In this document: in pieces, positions 17,365 to 64,000 of the stretch
How the letters are laid out: each line of letters opens with the position of its first letter
How positions within the stretch are numbered: position 1 is the first letter of the stretch
IMG/VR virus record: IMGVR_UViG_3300021339_000006
Span: 12,798-76,797 of that record
Strand: one strand, 5' to 3'
Length of the DNA stretch: 64,000 bases
From: a virus
Made by a program: the position numbers and the translations under genes
Notes under the pieces: generated by a model
What the model was told of the DNA's origin: nothing
Seen by the model: only the letters and a program-made list of their open reading frames with translations
Database searches by the model: none

Positions 17365-17537
17365 CGTGAACTATTATCTGGGCAGGACTCGGCTGAATGC
17401 AGCTTCGTCACGGTTAGCAGGAATACGTTTGGATTTGACGGTGCGTGGCTTGGCAAACAGGTAACCACCAATGAAGCCGAGCACAAAGTTGACAGCCATG
17501 CAGACAATCAACGTTCCAATGAATTGATCCAACGTCA

Positions 17538-29715: not shown

Positions 29716-30377
29716 GGTTTCCAAATAACTTTTGCGCCATCACCTGCTGACCAAATGTGACCTTTTGCCCTGTGCGCCTCGTAGGCGACTTTGCTGACCA
29801 CCACCACTGAATGGACAAGCTCTGTCCTGCTCCACGTCCTGCCTTTGCGCATGACACCGGCCGAAGGCAGCGTTCGGAAAGTGTGGTAGGTGCAATAGGC
29901 TGACACCGTCTTGATGTAAGTCACGCCACGTTTGAGAGTTCTAATTGTTTGCATATTAAATTGAAGCGTGGAGTGTTGTGAGGTCTGACTCGTCCGGCAA
30001 CGGCTCGCTGCATTGCTCGGGCGCTATGATCAGCTTGGCGTTGTCGGACACTCTGGACAGGCGCAGGAACGATCCGTTTTGAACGCCGAGCACTTTGTAG
30101 GTCTGTCCCGCGCAGTGCAGGTTACCGTCCAACGTTTTGATCGGGCGCGCGTCCGGTATGAGGAGCGTCACCTTTGTTCCGCGTTTTATATCGTTGAGGT
30201 TTGTAAATTTCATGGTGTTGTTGAGTTGGGGAATTACACCTCAATGCCAGCTTCGGCATTCGACGCATCAATGACCGCCTGCAGTGCGCACAGCGCGTCG
30301 TCGGCGTCAACTTTCATACAGACCAACTGCGCTGCTTCCAGCGCCGCTTTTTGTTCTTCGGTTAGTATCATGCTCCG

Positions 30378-30398
30378 GTATTAGCACGCACCGTGCCC
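30378..30398 (-). promoter_or_regulatory. sigma54-like (-24/-12) promoter
   Basis: GGGCACGGTGCGTGCTAATAC gives GG-N10-GC, with ATG 12 nt after the GC. Confidence 0.55.
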
Positions 30399-30581
30399 GC
30401 GTCCCAGTTGTCCTAAACTACTCAATCACAGCTCTTGCGTTTTGCAGGAGTGTCAAAAGTGTCGTCAATCTGTGCAAGTGTCTTTACACTTCTGTTGGAT
30501 TCTTAGACACCGCCCTTGTCTTGCCCTAGGCGCTGTGCTGCTTTTGCTGCACCTACAGCTTGGTCTATGCGCTTGCAAAGC

Positions 30582-30603
30582 TGCCTAGGTCAGGCTGAGG
30601 GCG
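30582..30603 (+). repeat. 22-bp dispersed intergenic repeat
   Basis: TGCCTAGGTCAGGCTGAGGGCG, identical to the reverse complement of 53308-53329. Confidence 0.85.
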
Positions 30604-30607
30604 AAAC

Positions 30608-31513
30608 TTAACGCACAGGCCCTCCTGCCACCCACGTGTCGAATTCTGCCGGATCCTTGCACGCACGCACAAACGCCTCCAGCCCTTGCAGCGCAGCTTC
30701 CGCTTTGGGCCGCACTGTGCGCAACCAATGCACGTAATACCACGACACACCAATGCCCCTTTTATTCCGATGGAACGTGTCGTCATCACACGCAGTCCAC
30801 GCTTTGAAGGGACTGTCCTGTGGCAGGTCCGTTGCCAAGTAACCACCCAGCGCAGTCTGACAACCCATCTTCACCTGCCCGATCATCTCGTCCTCATTCC
30901 AACACTCAATTCGATGGTTCGGAACGATCCCTTGGCAAAGGCGTCGCAATGGCATCACGTCCTCCTCAAGCACGCGCTCTCCTGTCGGGCACCAGGTGTC
31001 GAGAAACACACTATTGAACTCAACGCCGAAGTTCCGCGCATGGTGCAAGTATTGATAAATGTCTGCCTGAATCACCGACACCTTTCCTTTCGGAAGGTGT
31101 GCCCCTACAAGTTTGATGACATCCTTGCTGCGCTCTACTACCACAACCTTGGCAACGTTTGGATTCCGATCCAACAGCCCCACTGCCAATCCCAGTCCGA
31201 GCCCACCTACCAGAACCTTGCCACGCATCTTGGCAAGCTGTCGAGTGTGCTGTTCCACTTCTTGTGGCAACGAACTCATCCACGTGCCGGCGCCTGACTC
31301 CTTCAACGTGTGAACACCTATCGGCTCATCCAAAGTGAGGACAGTTGCCTTGAGTCCCATGAACAATGCGTTGCGCATCGACACAACAGGCAGGCGCGTG
31401 CCCGCTGCTTTGAACTCAACCGACACTGAGAACTTGCCACTCTTTCCCTCTGGGAGGTGGTAGGGAAGGGAAAAGATGCGGCCCTTGTGCTCGTATGTTG
31501 GGAATGCCTTCAT
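30608..31513 (-). CDS. SAM-dependent methyltransferase (spermidine-synthase-like fold)
   Basis: VLVGGLGLG, VVERSKDVI and FLDTW motifs. Confidence 0.75.
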   Translation of the reverse strand: MKAFPTYEHKGRIFSLPYHLPEGKSGKFSVSVEFKAAGTRLPVVSMRNALFMGLKATVLTLDEPIGVHTLKESGAGTWMSSLPQEVEQHTRQLAKMRGKVLVGGLGLGLAVGLLDRNPNVAKVVVVERSKDVIKLVGAHLPKGKVSVIQADIYQYLHHARNFGVEFNSVFLDTWCPTGERVLEEDVMPLRRLCQGIVPNHRIECWNEDEMIGQVKMGCQTALGGYLATDLPQDSPFKAWTACDDDTFHRNKRGIGVSWYYVHWLRTVRPKAEAALQGLEAFVRACKDPAEFDTWVAGGPVR

Positions 31514-32948: not shown

Positions 32949-33839
32949 TTAATTGAGCAAGAGGTTCAGCGCCTGCTTGCCAAGTTTGTTGCGTTCCATC
33001 ACTCCGAGGAACCGGTTTGTTTCGACGCTGCGCACATCGGTCTCCCGATAGTTGCGGAAATGTGTGGCGTATTCCGTCACTGCGTTGAACGCGTCCCAGC
33101 GCGTTTTGCCCTCGTTGCCTTCGCCCGTGTTAAACAGCTCGACCAACTTTGTGCGTCGGTTGTCCGCCTTGGTGCCTTCCGAGGGCATGAGCTTCTTGAG
33201 GAAGTCCTCAAACTGATCGGCCGTCATGCGTGCCTGCGCAAGCTTAGTGAACTCAACCTTGATCCCATCCACGTCCTGTTGCAGGTCATTCATAAACGTC
33301 TTCCAACGCTTGCTGTGGAGTTCTGCGCGGTTTGATGTGTGGGAAACCCACATGTTGGATTTGATCTCACGGCTCACCTGGCCGTTGAGGCAGCGCAAGC
33401 GTTCGATGTAAAGCCGACTGCGGCGAGGTGTGGCACCATCCCATCCGTCCGTGCTGTAAATGTAGGCTGCCATCGGATCGCCCAACTTGCGCGCGCCGCA
33501 CGGAATGTCCATCTTGACATCAAGCTTCACGAACGCAAACGCGCGGCAGCGTTCCTCAAGGAATCCTGCGCGCGTAACTTTGCCCTTGATGAAGTCCGCG
33601 AACTCAAACTGCTCCTTGAGGAACTCCCGAGGTTGACTGGGACTGTAACCCTTGCCGACGACGCCGAGCGCCTCTTTGGTGTCGCTGCGGTAAAGCAGCT
33701 TCATCCGAGGCATCACGATCGCAGTGTCCGTTCCGCTGACTGTGTCCTCAAGCGGCTCCCAGTCGAGGTTCGCTGCTTTGAGTGTTTCCTCCATCGAGGT
33801 CGCTTCCGTTCCGAGTGTTTGTATTATTGAGCTGTGCAT
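32949..33839 (-). CDS. DUF932/DUF945-family protein
   Basis: LDW, LGVVG..Y, RLRCLNG and TRWDAFNAVTEY motifs. Confidence 0.8.
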   Translation of the reverse strand: MHSSIIQTLGTEATSMEETLKAANLDWEPLEDTVSGTDTAIVMPRMKLLYRSDTKEALGVVGKGYSPSQPREFLKEQFEFADFIKGKVTRAGFLEERCRAFAFVKLDVKMDIPCGARKLGDPMAAYIYSTDGWDGATPRRSRLYIERLRCLNGQVSREIKSNMWVSHTSNRAELHSKRWKTFMNDLQQDVDGIKVEFTKLAQARMTADQFEDFLKKLMPSEGTKADNRRTKLVELFNTGEGNEGKTRWDAFNAVTEYATHFRNYRETDVRSVETNRFLGVMERNKLGKQALNLLLN

Positions 33840-33877
33840 ACTGTTTGTTCTTTCTGATTTGTTGTTGATGTTTGAAA

Positions 33878-34126
33878 TTAAGCATTGCGTTGGAGGAGCT
33901 CGTCCACTGCCGCCTCGCAATAAAAGTCGGGCACGCACAAAACAGCTTTGACGCCCTCCACCGTCGTAACCGAACGCATCGCCTCAAGTGCCGCGTCCCA
34001 AGTCGCATCCGAATACATTTGATAGCTGGACGTTTTGTCCTGCAGCATCGACTTCTCTACTTCGAGGACAACAGCCGCCCGTTGCTTGCCGTTTAACTCT
34101 GTTCCGACTGTCGTTGTATTTATCAT
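33878..34126 (-). CDS. hypothetical early protein (leaderless)
   Basis: ATG 6 nt after the -10 element. Confidence 0.5.
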   Translation of the reverse strand: MINTTTVGTELNGKQRAAVVLEVEKSMLQDKTSSYQMYSDATWDAALEAMRSVTTVEGVKAVLCVPDFYCEAAVDELLQRNA

Positions 34127-48238: not shown

Positions 48239-48444
48239 TGCTGTAGGTGCTCCTTTGCTTGCGCAACCACGCACCCGTGCTTGTGTCGAACTTGAGGAGG
48301 TGTCTTGCCAGTGTCATTGCAGTGGACACAATACCACTCAACCGAAAGGATTGTGTCCAACATAGACATCCCTCTGCGTGCTGGACGCTCCTTGATAGCA
48401 AGGTCAACCATCTCACTTAAAAGCTGCTTGGTGCTTTTACTCAT
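48235..48444 (-). CDS. small Zn-binding hypothetical protein
   Basis: CVHC...H..GC. Confidence 0.5.
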   Translation of the reverse strand: MSKSTKQLLSEMVDLAIKERPARRGMSMLDTILSVEWYCVHCNDTGKTPPQVRHKHGCVVAQAKEHLQQ

Positions 48445-50866: not shown

Positions 50867-52264
50867 TCAGAACGTGGAAAGGAGGCAGGGACAAGCGATT
50901 CCCAAGTTCCCTGCTGTCCACACGTTGTCTGTGTCTGCCCACTCGCCATCTCGAAGGAATACCCAGTTCAGACGGTAAATACCCATCTTCTTTTCGTCCG
51001 ACGTTTGATTGATCCCGCACATGCCAGTCACGTGCGCGTTCTTGCGCTTGTCCTCAGAAAAGTCCTTCTTGCGTATCATCCTCGAATCGTAAGCCGTCGC
51101 CGCTGCCTGGGTAGCGGTAACGACCAAGCAGTGGTTGTCCAAAGAAACCCGACGCATGATCTTCCACGATTCGTTCACCTGGTGTCGGTATTCCATGGAC
51201 TTGGTGGACGCTTCCGGCGCCAGCAAATCTATGTAATCCACCACCACCACATCAGCCACCCAACCATCTCTTGCAAACTCTGCAACGTCCCGTTCGATGT
51301 CACTTGCAGAAATTACTGACGCACCAACGCAGCGCACCTTGACTGGAAGTTCCTTGGACGCTGTGGCCTGCCTCAGCTTCTCCGCTACTGCCGCCACGTC
51401 TTTCCTTGAAAGTCCAATCCGGCGTTTGTTCCTAAACTTGACCCGGCCCTCTCCATCCCTCACAAGCAGGCGTCTGGGGAACCGAATGATCTTCGTCTTG
51501 AATGGACGCCTTGTTGCGCGCATGTAAAGCCGACGGAACGCCTGATCCTCGCTCATGTCACCCAAAACGTAGTAAAGCACCTTCTTCCGTTGCCGTATGC
51601 CCTGATACACAGTTTCGAGCAGCCAAAAACTTTTGCCACGTTTCTCTGGCGCAGCAAACGCAATGAACCCATCACGCTCAAAGTGTGGGGAAAGGAACTC
51701 GTCGAGGGCGCCAGGGAATTGGATCAGTGTCCTGTCCTGGTCATAATAATGAAACGTCTTCCGAATACTCTCCTTGGAAAACGGATCGCTCCAGTCGGAG
51801 GAGGAAAAGCTCACGGATTTGAAATCTGTGAGGTAGCTCTTGGCTTCCTCCGCGTCCTCATTGTCCAACGCTTGCTGCATTCCTTCTGCCGTGCGCGTCA
51901 ACCGAACGCGCTCAAAGTAGGCTGAGGAAAGGTCGATGAGGTATTTCTCATTCATCTCTTCTGCCACTGCCTCATGGTCTTTGCTGAGCCTGGACAGGAA
52001 CGCCTCGATTACTTCTGCAACGTCCGGATCTTTTATTTTGTCCGCGTGTTTGTGATACAGGTTGGTAATGTGTTTGCGTGGTGCTTTGTGGTAGCGACCG
52101 AAGTAGGCAAAACACCAATGCGCTATAAGGTTCGACCACTTGTTCTCAAAGGGACGTTTCTCACCAGCCATCCTCCCGTGGACGGCAGCAAGCACGCCAT
52201 CGTTAACAATTAACGCAACAAGGATGGCGCGTTCCTCATTGGACTTTACAGGGACGGACTTCAT
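50867..52264 (-). CDS. replicative helicase (DnaB-like)
   Basis: APEKRGKS, VVVDY, ATQ and SED..K motifs. Confidence 0.85.
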   Translation of the reverse strand: MKSVPVKSNEERAILVALIVNDGVLAAVHGRMAGEKRPFENKWSNLIAHWCFAYFGRYHKAPRKHITNLYHKHADKIKDPDVAEVIEAFLSRLSKDHEAVAEEMNEKYLIDLSSAYFERVRLTRTAEGMQQALDNEDAEEAKSYLTDFKSVSFSSSDWSDPFSKESIRKTFHYYDQDRTLIQFPGALDEFLSPHFERDGFIAFAAPEKRGKSFWLLETVYQGIRQRKKVLYYVLGDMSEDQAFRRLYMRATRRPFKTKIIRFPRRLLVRDGEGRVKFRNKRRIGLSRKDVAAVAEKLRQATASKELPVKVRCVGASVISASDIERDVAEFARDGWVADVVVVDYIDLLAPEASTKSMEYRHQVNESWKIMRRVSLDNHCLVVTATQAAATAYDSRMIRKKDFSEDKRKNAHVTGMCGINQTSDEKKMGIYRLNWVFLRDGEWADTDNVWTAGNLGIACPCLLSTF

Positions 52265-53160
52265 CGAAGTCCCATCGCTTTGAGCCGTTCAGGCGTGACT
52301 CTGGTTATCACGTCGTCGGGATCGTGTTTTCCATTCTTCCTGGGAGATTGCTGTCTCTTCATTGCGTCTTCAATCCGCACAAACTTCCCAAAGAAACTCT
52401 TGAACGTGTAACACTTAGGAACAAATTGGTCATCATTCCAATGGAGAAAATACCACTGCATCACTTTTTTAATTTGGTTTGGTTCAATCTGTTCAAAACA
52501 TCCCTGACAGGTTCTCGCCCAATTTTTGATTGTCCTGGGAGACCATCCTGTTCTGGTAGAACCAGGCTGTCCAACGTAGAATCTGTTTTTGATGGAAAAC
52601 TTGGCATACGCCTGGGCGAATCTCATTGCTCTGGTGATCACTGCATCCTGATCAAAGCCAAAAGAATCGTTATGTTTGACGCCGGCCTCGGGCCGCGCGT
52701 CCACTGTATTCTTACTTGTCTTATCTAGTATGTCAGATCGCATCACACTTTTATGTGATAGCCTCTCACACTTTTGTGTGATAGCTCTCACACTTTTGTG
52801 TGATAGCTGGGGTTCTTGGAAAGTAGTCCTCAAAGAGCGTCGGTTTCCAGGCAAACGCACCACTTTTACCAAACCCAGTTTTTCAAACTTTAGTATGGAA
52901 CATGACACCCAGTTTCTGGATTTCCCCCACCACACGGACAACCATCGGTTAGATGCTGTGCATCCTTTCTTTCGTTTGCACAGTGCGTTGATTTTTGAGA
53001 GCAACATCATCTCTTCGGCATTCAACACACGAGGCTGGTTCCGGCTGCCATCTGAGTTGGTGTCATCATAAAGTATTTTCACTTCCAATGGAATGAACCA
53101 TCCACGGGGCTGCTCTTCGTGAAGCTCCAACGCCTCTGCTTTGTGGTCTGCGTATCTCAT
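52261..53160 (-). CDS. replication initiator (lambda O-like; N-terminal wHTH, internal iterons)
   Basis: GCTASN..L...S...I..F...GLV wHTH; direct repeats in mid-gene; upstream of helicase. Confidence 0.7.
   Translation of the reverse strand: MRYADHKAEALELHEEQPRGWFIPLEVKILYDDTNSDGSRNQPRVLNAEEMMLLSKINALCKRKKGCTASNRWLSVWWGKSRNWVSCSILKFEKLGLVKVVRLPGNRRSLRTTFQEPQLSHKSVRAITQKCERLSHKSVMRSDILDKTSKNTVDARPEAGVKHNDSFGFDQDAVITRAMRFAQAYAKFSIKNRFYVGQPGSTRTGWSPRTIKNWARTCQGCFEQIEPNQIKKVMQWYFLHWNDDQFVPKCYTFKSFFGKFVRIEDAMKRQQSPRKNGKHDPDDVITRVTPERLKAMGLR
52743..52807. repeat. three 20-bp iterons (putative origin)
   Basis: TCACACTTTT(A/G)TGTGATAGC at 52743, 52766 and 52788. Confidence 0.8.
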
Positions 53161-53307: not shown

Positions 53308-53329
53308 CGCCCTCAGCCTGACCTAGGCA
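53308..53329 (-). repeat. 22-bp dispersed intergenic repeat
   Basis: Exact copy of 30582-30603 in the opposite orientation. Confidence 0.85.
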
Positions 53330-56935: not shown

Positions 56936-57646
56936 TTACTTGAGCTGCGCAGCTTGTGCGCTGTTGCCCACTTGTCCAAGTTTAATTTTGGAGCCTTCCT
57001 TCTTGCCGTGTGCATACGCACCACCGTCGATCCCAACCTCACGGTGCTTCGCCTCTTTGACACCTTCCATCTCTTTAGCAATCAACGCAACCTTGGTCCG
57101 CACAACCAACGCAAAACACTGCGCCTCCTTCGGGTTAAGCTTTTCCTCCTCGCGTTTGTTTGCGGCTGCTATTCCTCGATGAAGTCCGGCGTAAATGCCA
57201 CGCTTGCAAGCTGCGGTCATCTCCACGATCCCAGCCTTGCGTGCTTTGTAGTAGGTGGAGTAGAACACGTCCTCGAGCCAAGGAAACAGTTCCTTGCAAA
57301 TGAGGACGTCGGTGGCGTCTCCAACAAAACAAAAGCGCGAGCGCCCGAAAAATATAACGCGCACGCCGAACACGTCCTGGAGCGTCCACCAAATGTATTT
57401 GTGATACAGCTGGAATTTCTGTGAACGAATCTTCACGTCCTCTTTCACAATCTCCACACCGTAGGTTTTCTTTTCGTTCGGGTCGGCAAGTGACACCATC
57501 GCAATGTCGATTTGGTGTTTCATTGCAAGCTCCTTGGCACGGGCCATCGCAGCCTCAGCCTCGTGCGGCGTCGCTGCGTTGTTGTTTGCAAGTCGGAGAA
57601 TCTTTGCAAGTTTCTCGAGGATTTCTTCGTTCGGTAAGTTGTGCAT
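56936..57646 (-). CDS. DUF2786-domain protein
   Basis: KILRLA...TPHEAEAAMARAKELAMKH.I. Confidence 0.75.
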   Translation of the reverse strand: MHNLPNEEILEKLAKILRLANNNAATPHEAEAAMARAKELAMKHQIDIAMVSLADPNEKKTYGVEIVKEDVKIRSQKFQLYHKYIWWTLQDVFGVRVIFFGRSRFCFVGDATDVLICKELFPWLEDVFYSTYYKARKAGIVEMTAACKRGIYAGLHRGIAAANKREEEKLNPKEAQCFALVVRTKVALIAKEMEGVKEAKHREVGIDGGAYAHGKKEGSKIKLGQVGNSAQAAQLK

Positions 57647-58610: not shown

Positions 58611-59006
58611 TAGGAATCTCTACAAAGTCTCTTTTTGTTATTTACCCAACGCAGCTTTGAGCGCGCGGGCTGTAACGCGGAAGCGTTCGAGGTGCGCTGG
58701 GCACATACTGTGGCTGATTTTGAACCCTGCGAGGTCCGGAAAGTAACCTGTAATGGTGCTGCCCGGAAAGCACTCTCCGCATACGTGAACCACGCTTCCA
58801 ATTACTTTGTAGGGCTCGTTTTCAATTAGGGTGTTCATTGGGTGTTACCGGTTGTTGAAGCTGTGGACGATCGTGTCAAGCTGCGCCTCGTGCTGCGCGT
58901 TGTGCGCTGTGCTTGCGCTGCGCACGCCGTCAAATGCACTGCAAAGCATTAGGCACAACACTGCGCTTCCTACTGCAATTAGTGTCAACATCGTCTTCAT
59001 GCTGCC

Positions 59007-59027
59007 GTATTAGCAGGAGTGGTGCCC
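59007..59027 (-). promoter_or_regulatory. sigma54-like (-24/-12) promoter
   Basis: GGGCACCACTCCTGCTAATAC gives GG-N10-GC, with ATG 12 nt after the GC. Confidence 0.55.
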
Positions 59028-59143
59028 TCGAGACATTACGCAAAAACCGTGTGTTCATGCAGTAGCACGCGCAAACGGTGTCTTGTGTCTAGGACATTTC
59101 GAGACACTCTGTCTATTTTCTGCGCAGGCAAGATAATGCGGCT

Positions 59144-60190
59144 GTGAAACTGTTGTCGCTTGCGCTTGCAAACTTCCAAGCGCACGAGAAACTCAATATT
59201 GAGTTCGGTTCTGGCATCACAACCATTTGGGGCCCGACCGACGTGGGCAAGTCTGCCATACTGCGTGCGCTGCGCTGGGTGGCACTGAACGATCTTGGTG
59301 GGGATGATTTCATTCGGGAGGGAGGAAACAAAGCAATCGCGTTGCTCAAAGTGGATGTTGGAGAAAAAGGCCATCCAGTCCTTGTTCGGCACATACTGCG
59401 CACGCGCGGCCCAAGACGCACGAACCTGTATCAGCTTGATGATAAGGAGTTCTCTGCATTCGGGCAAGGCGTTCCATCGGACGTTACCGACCTGTTGAAT
59501 CTGAACGAGATCAATTTTCAAGCGCAGCACGACTCTCCATTCTGGTTCAGTGAATCCGCGCCCGAAGTTTCTCGAAAGCTCAATGCAGTGGTTGACCTCA
59601 GCGTCATCGACAGTTCCTTGTCTTACATTTGGGCACAGGTGCGCCTCGCACAGGAACGCAAGACCGTGACGGCAGAGCGCCTCGCAGAATCGAAAAAGCA
59701 GCTTGAGGAAATTCTGCCGCAGCGGGCTCGGATTGCAGCATTCGAGGAGATAAAGTCTAAGCATGAAGAGCAGCAAAAACTGGCAGCAACTTGTGGTAGA
59801 TTGGAAAAGCTCATCGACCGAGCGCGTGACACTCGAATCCGCGCAAAGGATTCCCTCGCCCAGCACACACAAGGCAGCGCGCTTCTTGAACTTGCCAGCA
59901 ATGCTCGAAAGCTGCAAAAGCGCAGAGACAGTTTGGAAGCTCTTCTCAAGGGCGCACGGGATCAAAAGCTCAAAGCTAAATCTCCACCACCTTTCGCCCC
60001 AGTCGAACTTGCGTATTCAAAATTCAACAAAGCGACTCTGGACGCAAACAACCTAGAGAAGTTGGTTGAACGAATCGAGATGGCGTCCAGCAAAGTCGCG
60101 CGCACAGCAAGGCAGGCGAAAGAAAGCGAATCCGAATTACACTCCAAGACAAAAGGACAACGGTGCCCCTTATGCCAAAAGCCAATGTGA
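59144..60190 (+). CDS. SbcC/Rad50-like ATPase, N-terminal half
   Basis: NFQAH, Walker A GPTDVGKS, Q-loop and coiled coil; ends at the CPLC zinc hook. Confidence 0.85.
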   Translation: MKLLSLALANFQAHEKLNIEFGSGITTIWGPTDVGKSAILRALRWVALNDLGGDDFIREGGNKAIALLKVDVGEKGHPVLVRHILRTRGPRRTNLYQLDDKEFSAFGQGVPSDVTDLLNLNEINFQAQHDSPFWFSESAPEVSRKLNAVVDLSVIDSSLSYIWAQVRLAQERKTVTAERLAESKKQLEEILPQRARIAAFEEIKSKHEEQQKLAATCGRLEKLIDRARDTRIRAKDSLAQHTQGSALLELASNARKLQKRRDSLEALLKGARDQKLKAKSPPPFAPVELAYSKFNKATLDANNLEKLVERIEMASSKVARTARQAKESESELHSKTKGQRCPLCQKPM

Positions 60191-62328: not shown

Positions 62329-63141
62329 TCAACGAGCGGTAGCTGGATCAATGTTGATTGGACCAACCGGACGTGGCGTTTCCACTGCCTGCACCCAAAC
62401 CCTTGTAGGTCTCTTCTTACGTATGGGCTTGGGCACCACGAGCTTTCCACCCTTGGGCGCTATTGCGGATAGGAAGTAGGGCCGCGTCCTGTAGAAGCCA
62501 GCGTCCTCCACAGTCTCATACCAAAGCACCACAGGCCCTTCTGTCGTGACCAAGGCGGCCCAGTTGGTAAGTGATGCGCTGCTTTCCACGTAATGCTTTC
62601 CCGGCGGCACCTGGAGCCCTAGGCGTTGAATTTGAGCACTACTCCATCGACTGTCTGCACTCCTGCCTTGCGCACGCACGCGCACGATCCAAGAGCCCTC
62701 GGTGGTCATGGGCAAATCCCAAATGATGATGGACGTGTTGGTGGTGAAGTTTGTCCCATAGTAGGTGGAGTGAACTTCGATCAGATAGTTGGTCGCCTCA
62801 GCAACCTCCGTCCACATTGCAAAGCCGTTTTGCAACTCAAGCACTGGCGCTGGCATGTGAGGAATTGCCCATGACACCTCGTCACTGAATTCGCTTTCTA
62901 GCTGCGCGCCGTTTTCGTCGATCTCATAGGCAGTGACACAAAAGAACAACACGTCACCCGAACGCTCCTTTGTAATTGGATAGTTGGTGCTCAGTCCAAC
63001 GTCCACTGAGTTTGTGTAGGAACGAGAAGCGCCACCAATGTAGACTTTGTATCCAGCCACCTCCGGCTCTGTATTGGGATCCCATTCAAGCCACGCACCA
63101 AAGCAAGACGATGCGAGCAGAAACCAAAGCAGCATCTTCAT
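62329..63141 (-). CDS. secreted fibronectin type III domain protein
   Basis: Signal peptide, WDPNTEPEVAGYKVY...VTAY....ESEFS; C-terminal ESSASLTNW...FYR. Confidence 0.75.
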   Translation of the reverse strand: MKMLLWFLLASSCFGAWLEWDPNTEPEVAGYKVYIGGASRSYTNSVDVGLSTNYPITKERSGDVLFFCVTAYEIDENGAQLESEFSDEVSWAIPHMPAPVLELQNGFAMWTEVAEATNYLIEVHSTYYGTNFTTNTSIIIWDLPMTTEGSWIVRVRAQGRSADSRWSSAQIQRLGLQVPPGKHYVESSASLTNWAALVTTEGPVVLWYETVEDAGFYRTRPYFLSAIAPKGGKLVVPKPIRKKRPTRVWVQAVETPRPVGPINIDPATAR

Positions 63142-63887
63142 ATCGTGAGCCCTACTTCTGCACCGAACTTGGTTCGGAGGAAGGTTCGATCCGTTCCAGC
63201 GACCACTGTATTGTAGACGCGCAGCCGTCGAATCTGACCAGCGAACGGAATACCACTTGAACTCATTTCTATTCGATAGTTTCCGCTGACAGTAAGATTC
63301 GTTCCACCAGCAGCCGACCCGTTAGATACACCGTCCACATACATATCTTTATTACCACCACTGCGATGATATTCAATTACATGCCAGGCGTCATCCCACC
63401 CGCTCAATTGGCTGGCAGAAAGACGATTAGGCGTTTCAGGGAAATCTGCGTAGAACACATTCGTGTAGGTGGAATACCAAAGGTGGGTCGGAGTCCCTTG
63501 AAGACGAATGATTGTATTCATCGCCTGCGCCCCATACTGCTTCACAGCCGCAAAAATGGAGAAGCTGCTGGCCGACAACCAAGTAGAAAGTGGGATGGGA
63601 GAAACTGCCGGTCCTAGGAAATAGTTGGTGGCACCTCCTGTTGGTAGAGCGATGCAGGGTAATCCATTCGCTCCGGTTGCATCGTAGGTCATGTTATTTC
63701 CAACACCAGGCACCATGGTGATGGCGTTGGGACTGGCCTCGACGAAACTCGCCACTGCTCCACCATGCGTCAATCCAGTCAGCAGCGACGCGTTGAAATC
63801 AAACGTCATGCCAGTAGTGAAATCAGGTGTTCCTGATGGCGTCAGTCTTCCTACCAGTGCTGGTGAATTCAATCCTAGTCCGTGCAT
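63138..63887 (-). CDS. LamG/concanavalin A-like lectin domain protein (probably virion-associated)
   Basis: WHVI.......MYVDG...FAGQI..LRVYN. Confidence 0.7.
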   Translation of the reverse strand: MHGLGLNSPALVGRLTPSGTPDFTTGMTFDFNASLLTGLTHGGAVASFVEASPNAITMVPGVGNNMTYDATGANGLPCIALPTGGATNYFLGPAVSPIPLSTWLSASSFSIFAAVKQYGAQAMNTIIRLQGTPTHLWYSTYTNVFYADFPETPNRLSASQLSGWDDAWHVIEYHRSGGNKDMYVDGVSNGSAAGGTNLTVSGNYRIEMSSSGIPFAGQIRRLRVYNTVVAGTDRTFLRTKFGAEVGLTI

Positions 63888-63888
63888 A

Positions 63889-64000
63889 TTATGGTTCGGC
63901 GGCGTATGCCGCGATGATGTCCGTGTCAGCAGATCCGAAACAAGTAAGCGTCATAAGAGCCACCTTACTGGCAGCAAGCGAAGCCGGCGCCGCTGCACCT
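63889..64000 (-). CDS. C-terminus of a probable tail-fibre-type protein (partial)
   Basis: ...APASLAASKVALMTLTCFGSADTDIIAAYAAEP-stop. Confidence 0.45.
   Translation of the reverse strand, partial: GAAAPASLAASKVALMTLTCFGSADTDIIAAYAAEP

Follow-up and report, generated by a model that had tools for sequence, protein, structure and literature searches.

Two sigma-54-like start-site motifs at the heads of the long gene trains of a soil phage

Genes and features at the locus

The DNA analysed here (the window) is a stretch of 64,000 nucleotides (nt) comprising bases 12798-76797 of the 76,797-base-pair (bp) soil phage record IMGVR_UViG_3300021339_000006; site coordinates are positions in this stretch. 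It carries two matching short motifs, each ending on the start codon of a small gene, that resemble -24/-12 promoters read by sigma-54 (RpoN), an alternative sigma factor. We ask whether they are such promoters, and place the probability that they are at roughly 0.5. PHROGs scanning of 97 open reading frames (ORFs), Pfam scanning of 104 and a crude gene map describe a tailed phage with nearly all of its genes on the minus strand, in which 47 of the 97 ORFs are devoid of a PHROG match.

The shared motif is CGnGGGCAC-N6-TGCTAATAC-nGnAGC-ATG on the minus strand, at 30398..30369 (site 1) and 59027..58998 (site 2). In full, site 1 reads GGGCAC-GGTGCG-TGCTAATAC-CGGAGC-ATG from 30398 down to 30369, and site 2 reads GGGCAC-CACTCC-TGCTAATAC-GGCAGC-ATG from 59027 down to 58998. 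When aligned on the ATG the two have CGnGGGCAC, TGCTAATAC, nGnAGC and ATGA in common, and none of the six bases of the spacer between the blocks (0/6). The original prediction, made from the letters of the window, had described this pair with its GG-N10-GC geometry and an ATG 12 nt after GC; it is indeed present, but on the minus strand. There is no third copy in the whole 76,797-bp record, even when 2 mismatches are allowed. Contigs assembled from three DNA runs contain the identical phage only, without variants at the site, and Rfam gives 0 matches over the window. The elements of the two sites and their first genes are as follows.

30383..30398, minus strand: site 1 core GGGCACGGTGCGTGCT, candidate -24/-12 element with GG-N10-GC, inside the gap 30372-30607
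30369..30382, minus strand: block that site 1 has in common with site 2, AATAC-CGGAGC-ATG, with the ATG 12 nt after GC
30234..30371, minus strand: first ORF after site 1, 45 amino acids, starting at the motif ATG; no family match, positive codon-usage score
59012..59027, minus strand: site 2 core GGGCACCACTCCTGCT, candidate -24/-12 element with GG-N10-GC, inside the gap 59001-59143
58998..59011, minus strand: site 2 block AATAC-GGCAGC-ATG, with the same geometry as at site 1
58845..59000, minus strand: first ORF after site 2, 51 amino acids, hydrophobic N-terminus; no family match, positive codon-usage score

Site 1 lies in a 236-nt gap (30372-30607) between minus-strand genes and site 2 in a 143-nt divergent gap (59001-59143), which has a plus-strand SbcC/SbcD-like operon on its right. 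Both sites are intergenic, on the gene strand and placed before the first ORF of a long co-directional train, as a sigma-54 promoter should be, and from the gene map around the two gaps it follows that they head the only two long co-directional gene trains. The train of site 1 runs from the 45-residue ORF through small genes, QueC, terminase, ThyX, portal, head and glycosylation genes and capsid to tail genes, continuing across the record ends. The train of site 2 starts with the 51-residue ORF, small genes, an SNF2 helicase, a primase and a DnaB-like helicase; its middle part holds 7-deazaguanine genes (FolE, QueD, QueE and a DpdA-like gene) and a sliding clamp; later come a split family-A polymerase (PolA), a clamp loader, UvsY/UvsX and an exonuclease, and it ends with a methyltransferase-like gene at 30608. 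No terminator was found on the minus strand after the operon upstream of site 1.

The motif as a repeat and as a sigma-54 match

Sigma-54 promoters are recognized by GG at -24 and GC at -12, within the consensus TGGCAC-N5-TTGCW, and need an AAA+ enhancer-binding protein. The core of both sites has these features, namely GGGCAC-N6-TGCT with GG-N10-GC and TGC at -12. As a repeat, the shared motif is beyond chance. The block TGCTAATACnGnAGCATGA occurs twice at up to 3 mismatches where 0.08 occurrences are expected, and none of 100 shuffles reaches two (0/100). Among 6,670 pairs of start-codon contexts (116 crude gene calls), the site pair is the top outlier, with 28/40 identical positions against 24 in the next pair. 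When the 31-mer of site 1 is compared with the rest of the record, site 2 matches at 24/31 positions and the best other place at 19/31. As a match to the sigma-54 consensus, in contrast, the motif is not beyond chance.

The pattern GGCAC-N6-TGCW is found 2 times with 2.01 expected, and TGGCAC-N5-TTGCW at up to 2 mismatches has 47 occurrences with 49.0 expected. On an ad hoc sigma-54 position matrix (hereafter the ad hoc matrix; maximum 18.7), sites 1 and 2 score 13.2 and 11.3, values at which 2.5 and 8.2 chance sites are expected in the record. On a matrix tallied from 29 intergenic sites supported by chromatin immunoprecipitation (the Salmonella matrix; PMC3844500, Table 3; maximum 24.9), their scores are 8.8 and 7.7, which places them 27th and 46th in the record, with 15.7 and 25.9 sites expected. 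The main loss of score comes from two positions, the T before GG (T in 29/29 Salmonella sites), which is G here, and the T at -15, replaced by G in one site and by C in the other. Furthermore, the conserved CG at -30/-29, AATAC and nGnAGC are left unexplained by sigma-54. Matrix scoring had been proposed together with the original prediction. The sites do not stand out from the background of the whole record (27th and 46th); in crude intergenic DNA only (6,421 nt), sites 1 and 2 are the top 2 of 5 matches scoring at least 9.5. As a separate observation, the record's best match to the Salmonella matrix is TGGCATGACGTTTGATTT at 63796-63813 on the minus strand (score 17.8, 0.09 expected); it is located within the 5' part of the ORF 63138-63887 and has GA instead of GC at -12.

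Conservation in related phages

The collections searched contain no close relative of this phage. Megablast of both site regions against cultured phages returned no match, the exact 30-nt pattern had 0 matches in the viral contig collection, and a query with the SNF2 helicase found no relative. Relatives of the 301-residue gene and of SbcC are 31-52% identical and show no synteny at the sites, and a TerL search of genome contigs gave one 30% match, in a metagenome-assembled genome. The closest cultured phages, with 36-49% identity in TerL and 34% in the capsid protein, are too distant to indicate a host. TerL searches nevertheless led to G001 (27.6 kb), the IMG/VR copy of the 77-kb metagenome contig L045, which has 21 proteins in common with this phage at a mean identity of 49.5%; a further record, G002 (32.7 kb), has about 79% nucleotide identity to G001.

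Both relatives carry the core of the motif. In G001, two identical 26-nt copies of TGAAATCGGCATGAGTCTTGCTCATA are intergenic and on the gene strand. One of them, site A, precedes a homologue of the 57960-58445 gene of this phage and the SNF2 helicase, a position equivalent to that of site 2, and the other, site B, lies directly before a DUF932 gene. All six CGGCAY-N6-TGCT sites of G002 (6/6) are between ORFs and on the gene strand; four correspond to CGGCATGA(A/G)TCTTGCTCATA, one to CGGCACACAACCTGCTTAT and one to CGGCATGTAGCCTGCTATA, and their spacers vary (GAATCT, GAGTCT, ACAACC and GTAGCC). As in G001, one of the G002 sites immediately precedes DUF932. The sites of G001 and G002 reach 15.0 on the ad hoc matrix, where 0.18 matches are expected per record of the size of G001. 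With the Salmonella matrix, the two G001 sites take ranks 1-2 in their record and the six of G002 ranks 3-5 and 8-10 in theirs.

In a MAFFT alignment of 8 sites from the three phages, 12 columns of the motif region do not vary, namely those of GGCA, of a single C, of TGCT and of ATA; about 25 nt downstream there is one more invariant A. GGCA and TGCT are kept in 8/8 sites and other positions drift, a pattern of conservation expected of sigma-54 promoters. According to PMC3844500, the essential elements are GG and TGC, and the A:T pair that follows GGC is contacted; all of these bases are kept in the alignment. The orientation of GGCA...TGCT relative to the genes is identical in 10/10 sites of the three phages.

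In G001 and G002 a palindrome, TTGCA-N4-TGCAA, stands about 10 nt after the core and is also present upstream of it. A composite pattern made of the core and this palindrome was found in 17 stretches of 7 viral contigs, two contigs of 10 kb having 4 each, with variable spacers; because the search pattern fixes the core bases, this result speaks for spread and copy number and not for constraint. The palindrome follows nearly every sigma-54-like site (in G001, in G002 and in the contigs behind L103-L106 and L108-L111), its flanks often extending the complementarity, and may act as an operator that covers the start site or else fold into a hairpin with which the transcripts begin. Near-perfect sigma-54 consensus sites were also noticed in more distant viral contigs, at L005 1396-1411 (plus strand), L022 301 (minus strand) and L028 18889 (plus strand), where the 530 kb covered would by chance hold about 0.6 such matches; that of L005, TGGCACTTTATTTGCA, has its ATG 10 nt beyond the GC.

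Predicted start site and leader

Transcription from sigma-54 promoters is expected to start about 11-13 nt after GC. Counting from the C of GC as -12, +1 is the C that precedes the ATG, and the purines closest to it are a G, two bases upstream of the ATG, and the ATG's own A; the predicted leader is therefore 0-2 nt long. There is no usable Shine-Dalgarno sequence: at site 1 a GGAG lies 1 nt from the ATG, and site 2 has none. This layout is specific to this phage and perhaps to site A of G001, since in G002 the ATG is 38-70 nt downstream of the sites, so that the leaderless geometry is not a trait of the family.

Leaderless messenger RNAs (mRNAs) are documented in an alphaproteobacterium, Sinorhizobium meliloti, for which the available part of PMC3616915 reports 171 mapped leaderless mRNAs, all starting with AUG. 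The candidate messages of the phage resemble these in having an ATG at the expected +1 and no usable Shine-Dalgarno sequence. They would differ in that known leaderless mRNAs are read by sigma-70-family factors, whereas a leaderless message driven by sigma-54 would be unusual; no paper on one was among the entries listed by a literature search.

Repeats upstream of the sites

The prediction also held that the non-coding DNA upstream of both sites is rich in GTGTC/GACAC, and the counts bear this out. This DNA is 209 nt long at site 1 and 116 nt at site 2 and contains GACAC/GTGTC 7 times against 0.66 expected (third of 512 pentamer pairs) and AGACA/TGTCT 8 times against 0.47 expected (first of 512). 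The repeats are clustered as follows, distances being from the A of the ATG.

30450..30510, minus strand: site 1 repeat cluster, GACAC at -83, -92 and -111, GTGTC at -139
59078..59107, minus strand: site 2 repeat cluster, GACAC at -82 and -89, GTGTC at -107

In the form AGACAC/GTGTCT, the repeats span 78 to 139 bp upstream of both start codons, a distance (-78 to -139) that fits the usual enhancer range of about 70-150 bp given in the accessible text of PMC3844500. Two further repeat arrays were noticed elsewhere in the window. Five GACAC/GTGTC occur in 90 nt at 48266-48356, within a small ORF just upstream of the DpdA-like gene (0/200 shuffles reach five); this cluster was considered as a promoter region and dropped, as only a poor GG-N10-GC follows it. 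Three tandem 22-nt units (CTCTCACACTTTTGTGTGATAG, 82-100% identity) at 52740-52806 lie inside a replication-initiator-like gene (52261-53160). Each unit holds CACAC-TTTT-GTGTG, with a core resembling the GACAC-TTTT-GACAC upstream of site 1, and the units are probably the iterons of a replication origin.

Search for phage-encoded factors

No sigma factor, RNA polymerase, enhancer-binding protein or helix-turn-helix regulator family was found in the Pfam and PHROGs scans of the phage ORFs. A six-frame search with PF00158 of the phage record, G001 and G002 returned the clamp-loader P-loop only; this search also matches all 14 control genomes and is therefore not specific. The sigma-54 DNA-binding domain PF04552 gave 0 matches, and no GAFTGA-like loop occurs in an open frame. 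The absence of an AAA+ activator gene, initially claimed for the window, can by these searches (Pfam, PHROGs, PF00158, PF04552 and GAFTGA) be extended to the whole record. When a cognate factor was sought by phyletic pattern, the only candidates to emerge were DUF932, DUF2786/DUF7168, MazG-like and QueD proteins and two small ORFs. The DUF932 and DUF2786/DUF7168 proteins (window 32949-33938 and 56936-57646) are found in G001 and G002, which have the sites, and not in G003 or G004, two further, equally related phages described below, in a sample too small for inference.

Possible sigma-54 promoters as the best explanation

We consider it about an even chance (probability about 0.5) that both sites are sigma-54-type -24/-12 promoters heading two long leftward transcription units. 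At that probability it is the best single explanation of the sites, and it is based on position, orientation and conservation in relatives, not on the strength of the match. Host RNA polymerase with sigma-54 would dock at GGCA(C) (-24) and TGC(T) (-12) to form a closed complex, which would open solely through an ATP-hydrolysing activator. As no recognisable activator is encoded by the phage, an enhancer-binding protein of the host would be needed; it may be recruited by, or modulated via, the AGACAC/GTGTCT repeats 78-139 bp upstream. Transcription would start at, or within about 2 nt of, the ATG 12 nt after GC, and each train's first small ORF would be translated from an mRNA that is leaderless or nearly so. 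Observed are the sequence, copy number, position, orientation and conservation of the sites and the lack of sigma-54 and activator genes in the phage; that the holoenzyme binds, that a host activator is required, where transcription starts and that translation is leaderless are all inferred. The originally proposed gating of the two gene clusters by a host activator is pure inference.

The claim that the sites are sigma-54 promoters has thus fared unevenly: the invariant GGCA...TGCT and the gene-oriented intergenic copies in G001 and G002 support it, and the modest matrix matches and the lack of sites in other relatives do not. G003 (93% complete) has 47 proteins in common with this phage and the same architecture, including the divergent SbcCD operon, yet has no gene-strand site in its gaps, and the same is true of G004, a complete genome. 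The sigma-54-like matches in G003 are on the non-gene strand, and the high-scoring ones in G004 are antisense within long ORFs; both were taken as chance. The divergent region of G003 likewise contains GTGTCT and TAGACAC yet lacks any sigma-54-like site, so that the repeats need not be an enhancer; they may bind a phage regulator rather than a host activator.

Compared with the bacterial sigma-54 promoters of PMC3844500 (Table 3), the phage sites are alike in GG-N10-GC, GGCAC, TGCT, orientation towards the operon, repeated short sites about 80-140 bp upstream and retention of GGCA and TGC in relatives. They differ in lacking the T before GG and the T at -15, in having the ATG at the expected start and no leader, and in being candidate elements of a lytic-type phage that encodes neither sigma-54 nor an activator.

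Alternative explanations

A doubtful but serious alternative is that the sites are sigma-70-family promoters giving leaderless mRNAs. The -10 element would be GCTAATAC, read as the Caulobacter/alphaproteobacterial GCtANAWC, or else TGn-TAATAC, read as an extended -10; the A of the ATG, 6 nt on, would be +1, and the conserved GGGCAC box, then part of the spacer, would serve as an operator or as a site for an activator. T4 middle promoters, in which a box replaces the -35 element, offer a comparison for GGGCAC. Excerpts of PMC8144410 and PMC13004042 give the housekeeping consensus of Caulobacter RpoD (sigma-73) as TTGaCgS / GCtANAWC. To the detriment of sigma-54, GCTAATAC matches this -10 consensus at 7/8 positions, GGGACGC of site 1 matches TTGaCgS at 5/7 with a spacing of 13 nt, and TAATAC-N6-ATG has the textbook distance from -10 to +1. 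The conservation of AATAC and AGC-ATG and the exact distance to the ATG would thereby be accounted for, but the GGGCAC box would not. Moreover, matches of this level (one mismatch in the -10, two in the -35) are common: counting both strands, the record has 24 places that equal it and 6 that exceed it, most of them within coding DNA, and the -35 of site 2 matches TTGaCgS at only 3/7. Judged by Escherichia coli rules, a C replaces the A(-11) in GCTAAT and the T(-7) in TAATAC, and a simple TTGACA/TATAAT scan found no minus-strand site in either gap. The relatives read GCTCATA, GCTTATT and GCTTTAC, with C or T at the -11 position and no -35, yet they keep CGGCAY; the sigma-70 reading fails for their sites because the A(-11) position is C in GCTCATA (hexamers GCTCAT and TCATAC). 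The phage does have a separate GATAAT[AG] class, detailed below, in which 4 copies are followed by a start codon after 5-8 nt; one of the four has the N8 spacing of sites 1 and 2. Distant cultured relatives include phages of the alphaproteobacteria Brevundimonas, Rhizobium and Erythrobacter, and AUG-starting leaderless mRNAs are documented in an alphaproteobacterium (PMC3616915, in the part available). Overlap of both promoter types at the sites is possible.

Two other explanations dispense with the sigma factors of the host or with promoter function. The sites may be phage-specific promoters read via a factor of the phage itself, for example a sigma-like protein, or one redirecting RNA polymerase, that has gone unrecognised, in which case the sigma-54 likeness would be coincidental and AGACAC and TTGCA-N4-TGCAA would be regulator sites of that system. 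We regard this as unlikely, given that the chance of an unrelated conserved 20-mer reaching a sigma-54 score of 15.0 is about 3e-6 per position and that CGGCAY and TGCT stay exactly the same in sites whose spacer is free. Of the 8 sites of G001 and G002, 5 agree almost fully over a 20-mer that takes in the spacer, which is typical of such promoters, and the many family-less ORFs (47/97 without PHROG match) or the DUF932 and DUF2786/DUF7168 proteins common to G001 and G002 and absent from G003 and G004 leave room for such a factor. Still, none of the regulatory families listed above was detected, and one of the sites heads replication genes, needed before most phage proteins exist. The excerpt of PMC10914365 on Pseudomonas phage YuA is of interest here: it describes nine conserved YuA promoters, four of which had earlier been reported to lack in vivo activity, and its authors see in this a sign that additional, possibly phage-encoded factors are needed. 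Very improbable in our view is a motif that binds or docks protein and is not a promoter at all, be it an operator over the first start codon or a docking site or roadblock for sigma-54 holoenzyme that is never activated. GCA...TGC is near-palindromic, sigma-54 holoenzyme can occupy DNA without firing (PMC3844500, excerpted text) and the activator gene is absent from the phage; against this, the asymmetric GGCA...TGCT is oriented alike to the genes in all ten sites of three phages, the sites are exactly at the heads of the gene trains, and neither gap has another minus-strand promoter candidate.

Sigma-54 in phages and possible meaning

To our knowledge, phages are thought to rely almost entirely on the main sigma factor of the host or on polymerases and sigma factors of their own. 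If the sites work as sigma-54 promoters, a lytic phage could start neither of its gene trains until an enhancer-binding protein of the host is active, and infection would be gated by host physiology; the alternative would be an activator of a new kind.

Use of sigma-54 by phages is rare yet not unprecedented according to the available text of PMC5053324, which cites Pseudomonas phage YuA (Ceyssens et al., 2008), and one YuA start site (P015) is labelled sigma54-like in Table S3 of PMC10914365, likewise consulted in part. The 50 nt upstream of P015 given there, however, were read by us as TTGACC-N17-TACAAT, which is sigma-70-like, with no GG-N10-GC, and the YuA precedent, as far as these excerpts go, is therefore weaker than its label. 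As described in them, YuA resembles this phage in having no RNA polymerase of its own and is said to use host sigma-54 for part of its programme; it differs in that the motif of the present phage can be read explicitly, has two copies and recurs in relatives, and no relatedness of the two phages was seen. In the part of PMC7693777 available, a protein of phage Q19 has weak HHpred likeness to sigma-54. YuA and this putative sigma-54-like protein were the only phage cases returned by a full-text literature search whose results were seen as excerpts, and in those excerpts nothing was found on conserved families of sigma-54-type promoters in lytic phages.

A more radical variant, which we hold to be a long shot, is that a lytic soil phage lineage enters its gene trains via host sigma-54 polymerase without an AAA+ activator, a phage-specified, non-canonical factor opening the polymerase at repeats of the phage's own (AGACAC here, TTGCA-N4-TGCAA in the relatives), and that in this phage the promoter fires at the start codon. 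Were this the case, it would represent a new mode of sigma-54 activation together with a leaderless message driven by sigma-54. On a speculative note, the phage would make 7-deazaguanine DNA, and modification of the contacted G residues could time these promoters.

Other sequence features

A second class of promoter-like elements is GATAAT[AG], of which the record has 13 copies, 11/13 of them on the local gene strand and none with a recognisable -35. The copies in the window are at 17378, 19511, 20835, 24343, 27229, 36932, 40606, 50152, 50825 and 53288 on the minus strand and at 59132 on the plus strand. Distances to the start codon are 5 nt for QueC and UvsY, 6 nt for SbcC and 8 nt for ThyX. 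The class is also found before DUF932 in G001 and G002, and GATAAT-N5-GTG precedes the SbcC homologue of G003; GCTAATAC is one base off this class. One copy and a neighbouring inverted repeat belong to the two intergenic gaps.

59132..59146, plus strand: divergent -10-like element GATAAT-N6-GTG, including the start codon of the SbcC/SbcD-like operon, in the same intergenic region as site 2
30511..30603, no strand assigned: inverted repeat with 21-nt arms, 76% complementary and 51 nt apart, just past the end of the methyltransferase-like gene

An exact 21-mer, GCCTAGGTCAGGCTGAGGGCG, occurs in opposite orientations at 30583-30603 (plus strand) and 53308-53328 (minus strand), and 0/100 shuffles give any such match. 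The copy at 30583-30603 pairs with 30511-30531, giving a hairpin, long but imperfect, where the replication train ends, and the copy at 53308-53328 is 19 nt before a GATAAT. Lastly, the final ~140 nt of the record (76655-76797; window 63858-64000) repeat its first ~140 nt (record positions 1-143) with one mismatch; the phage genome is probably a complete one, with either circular permutation or terminal redundancy.

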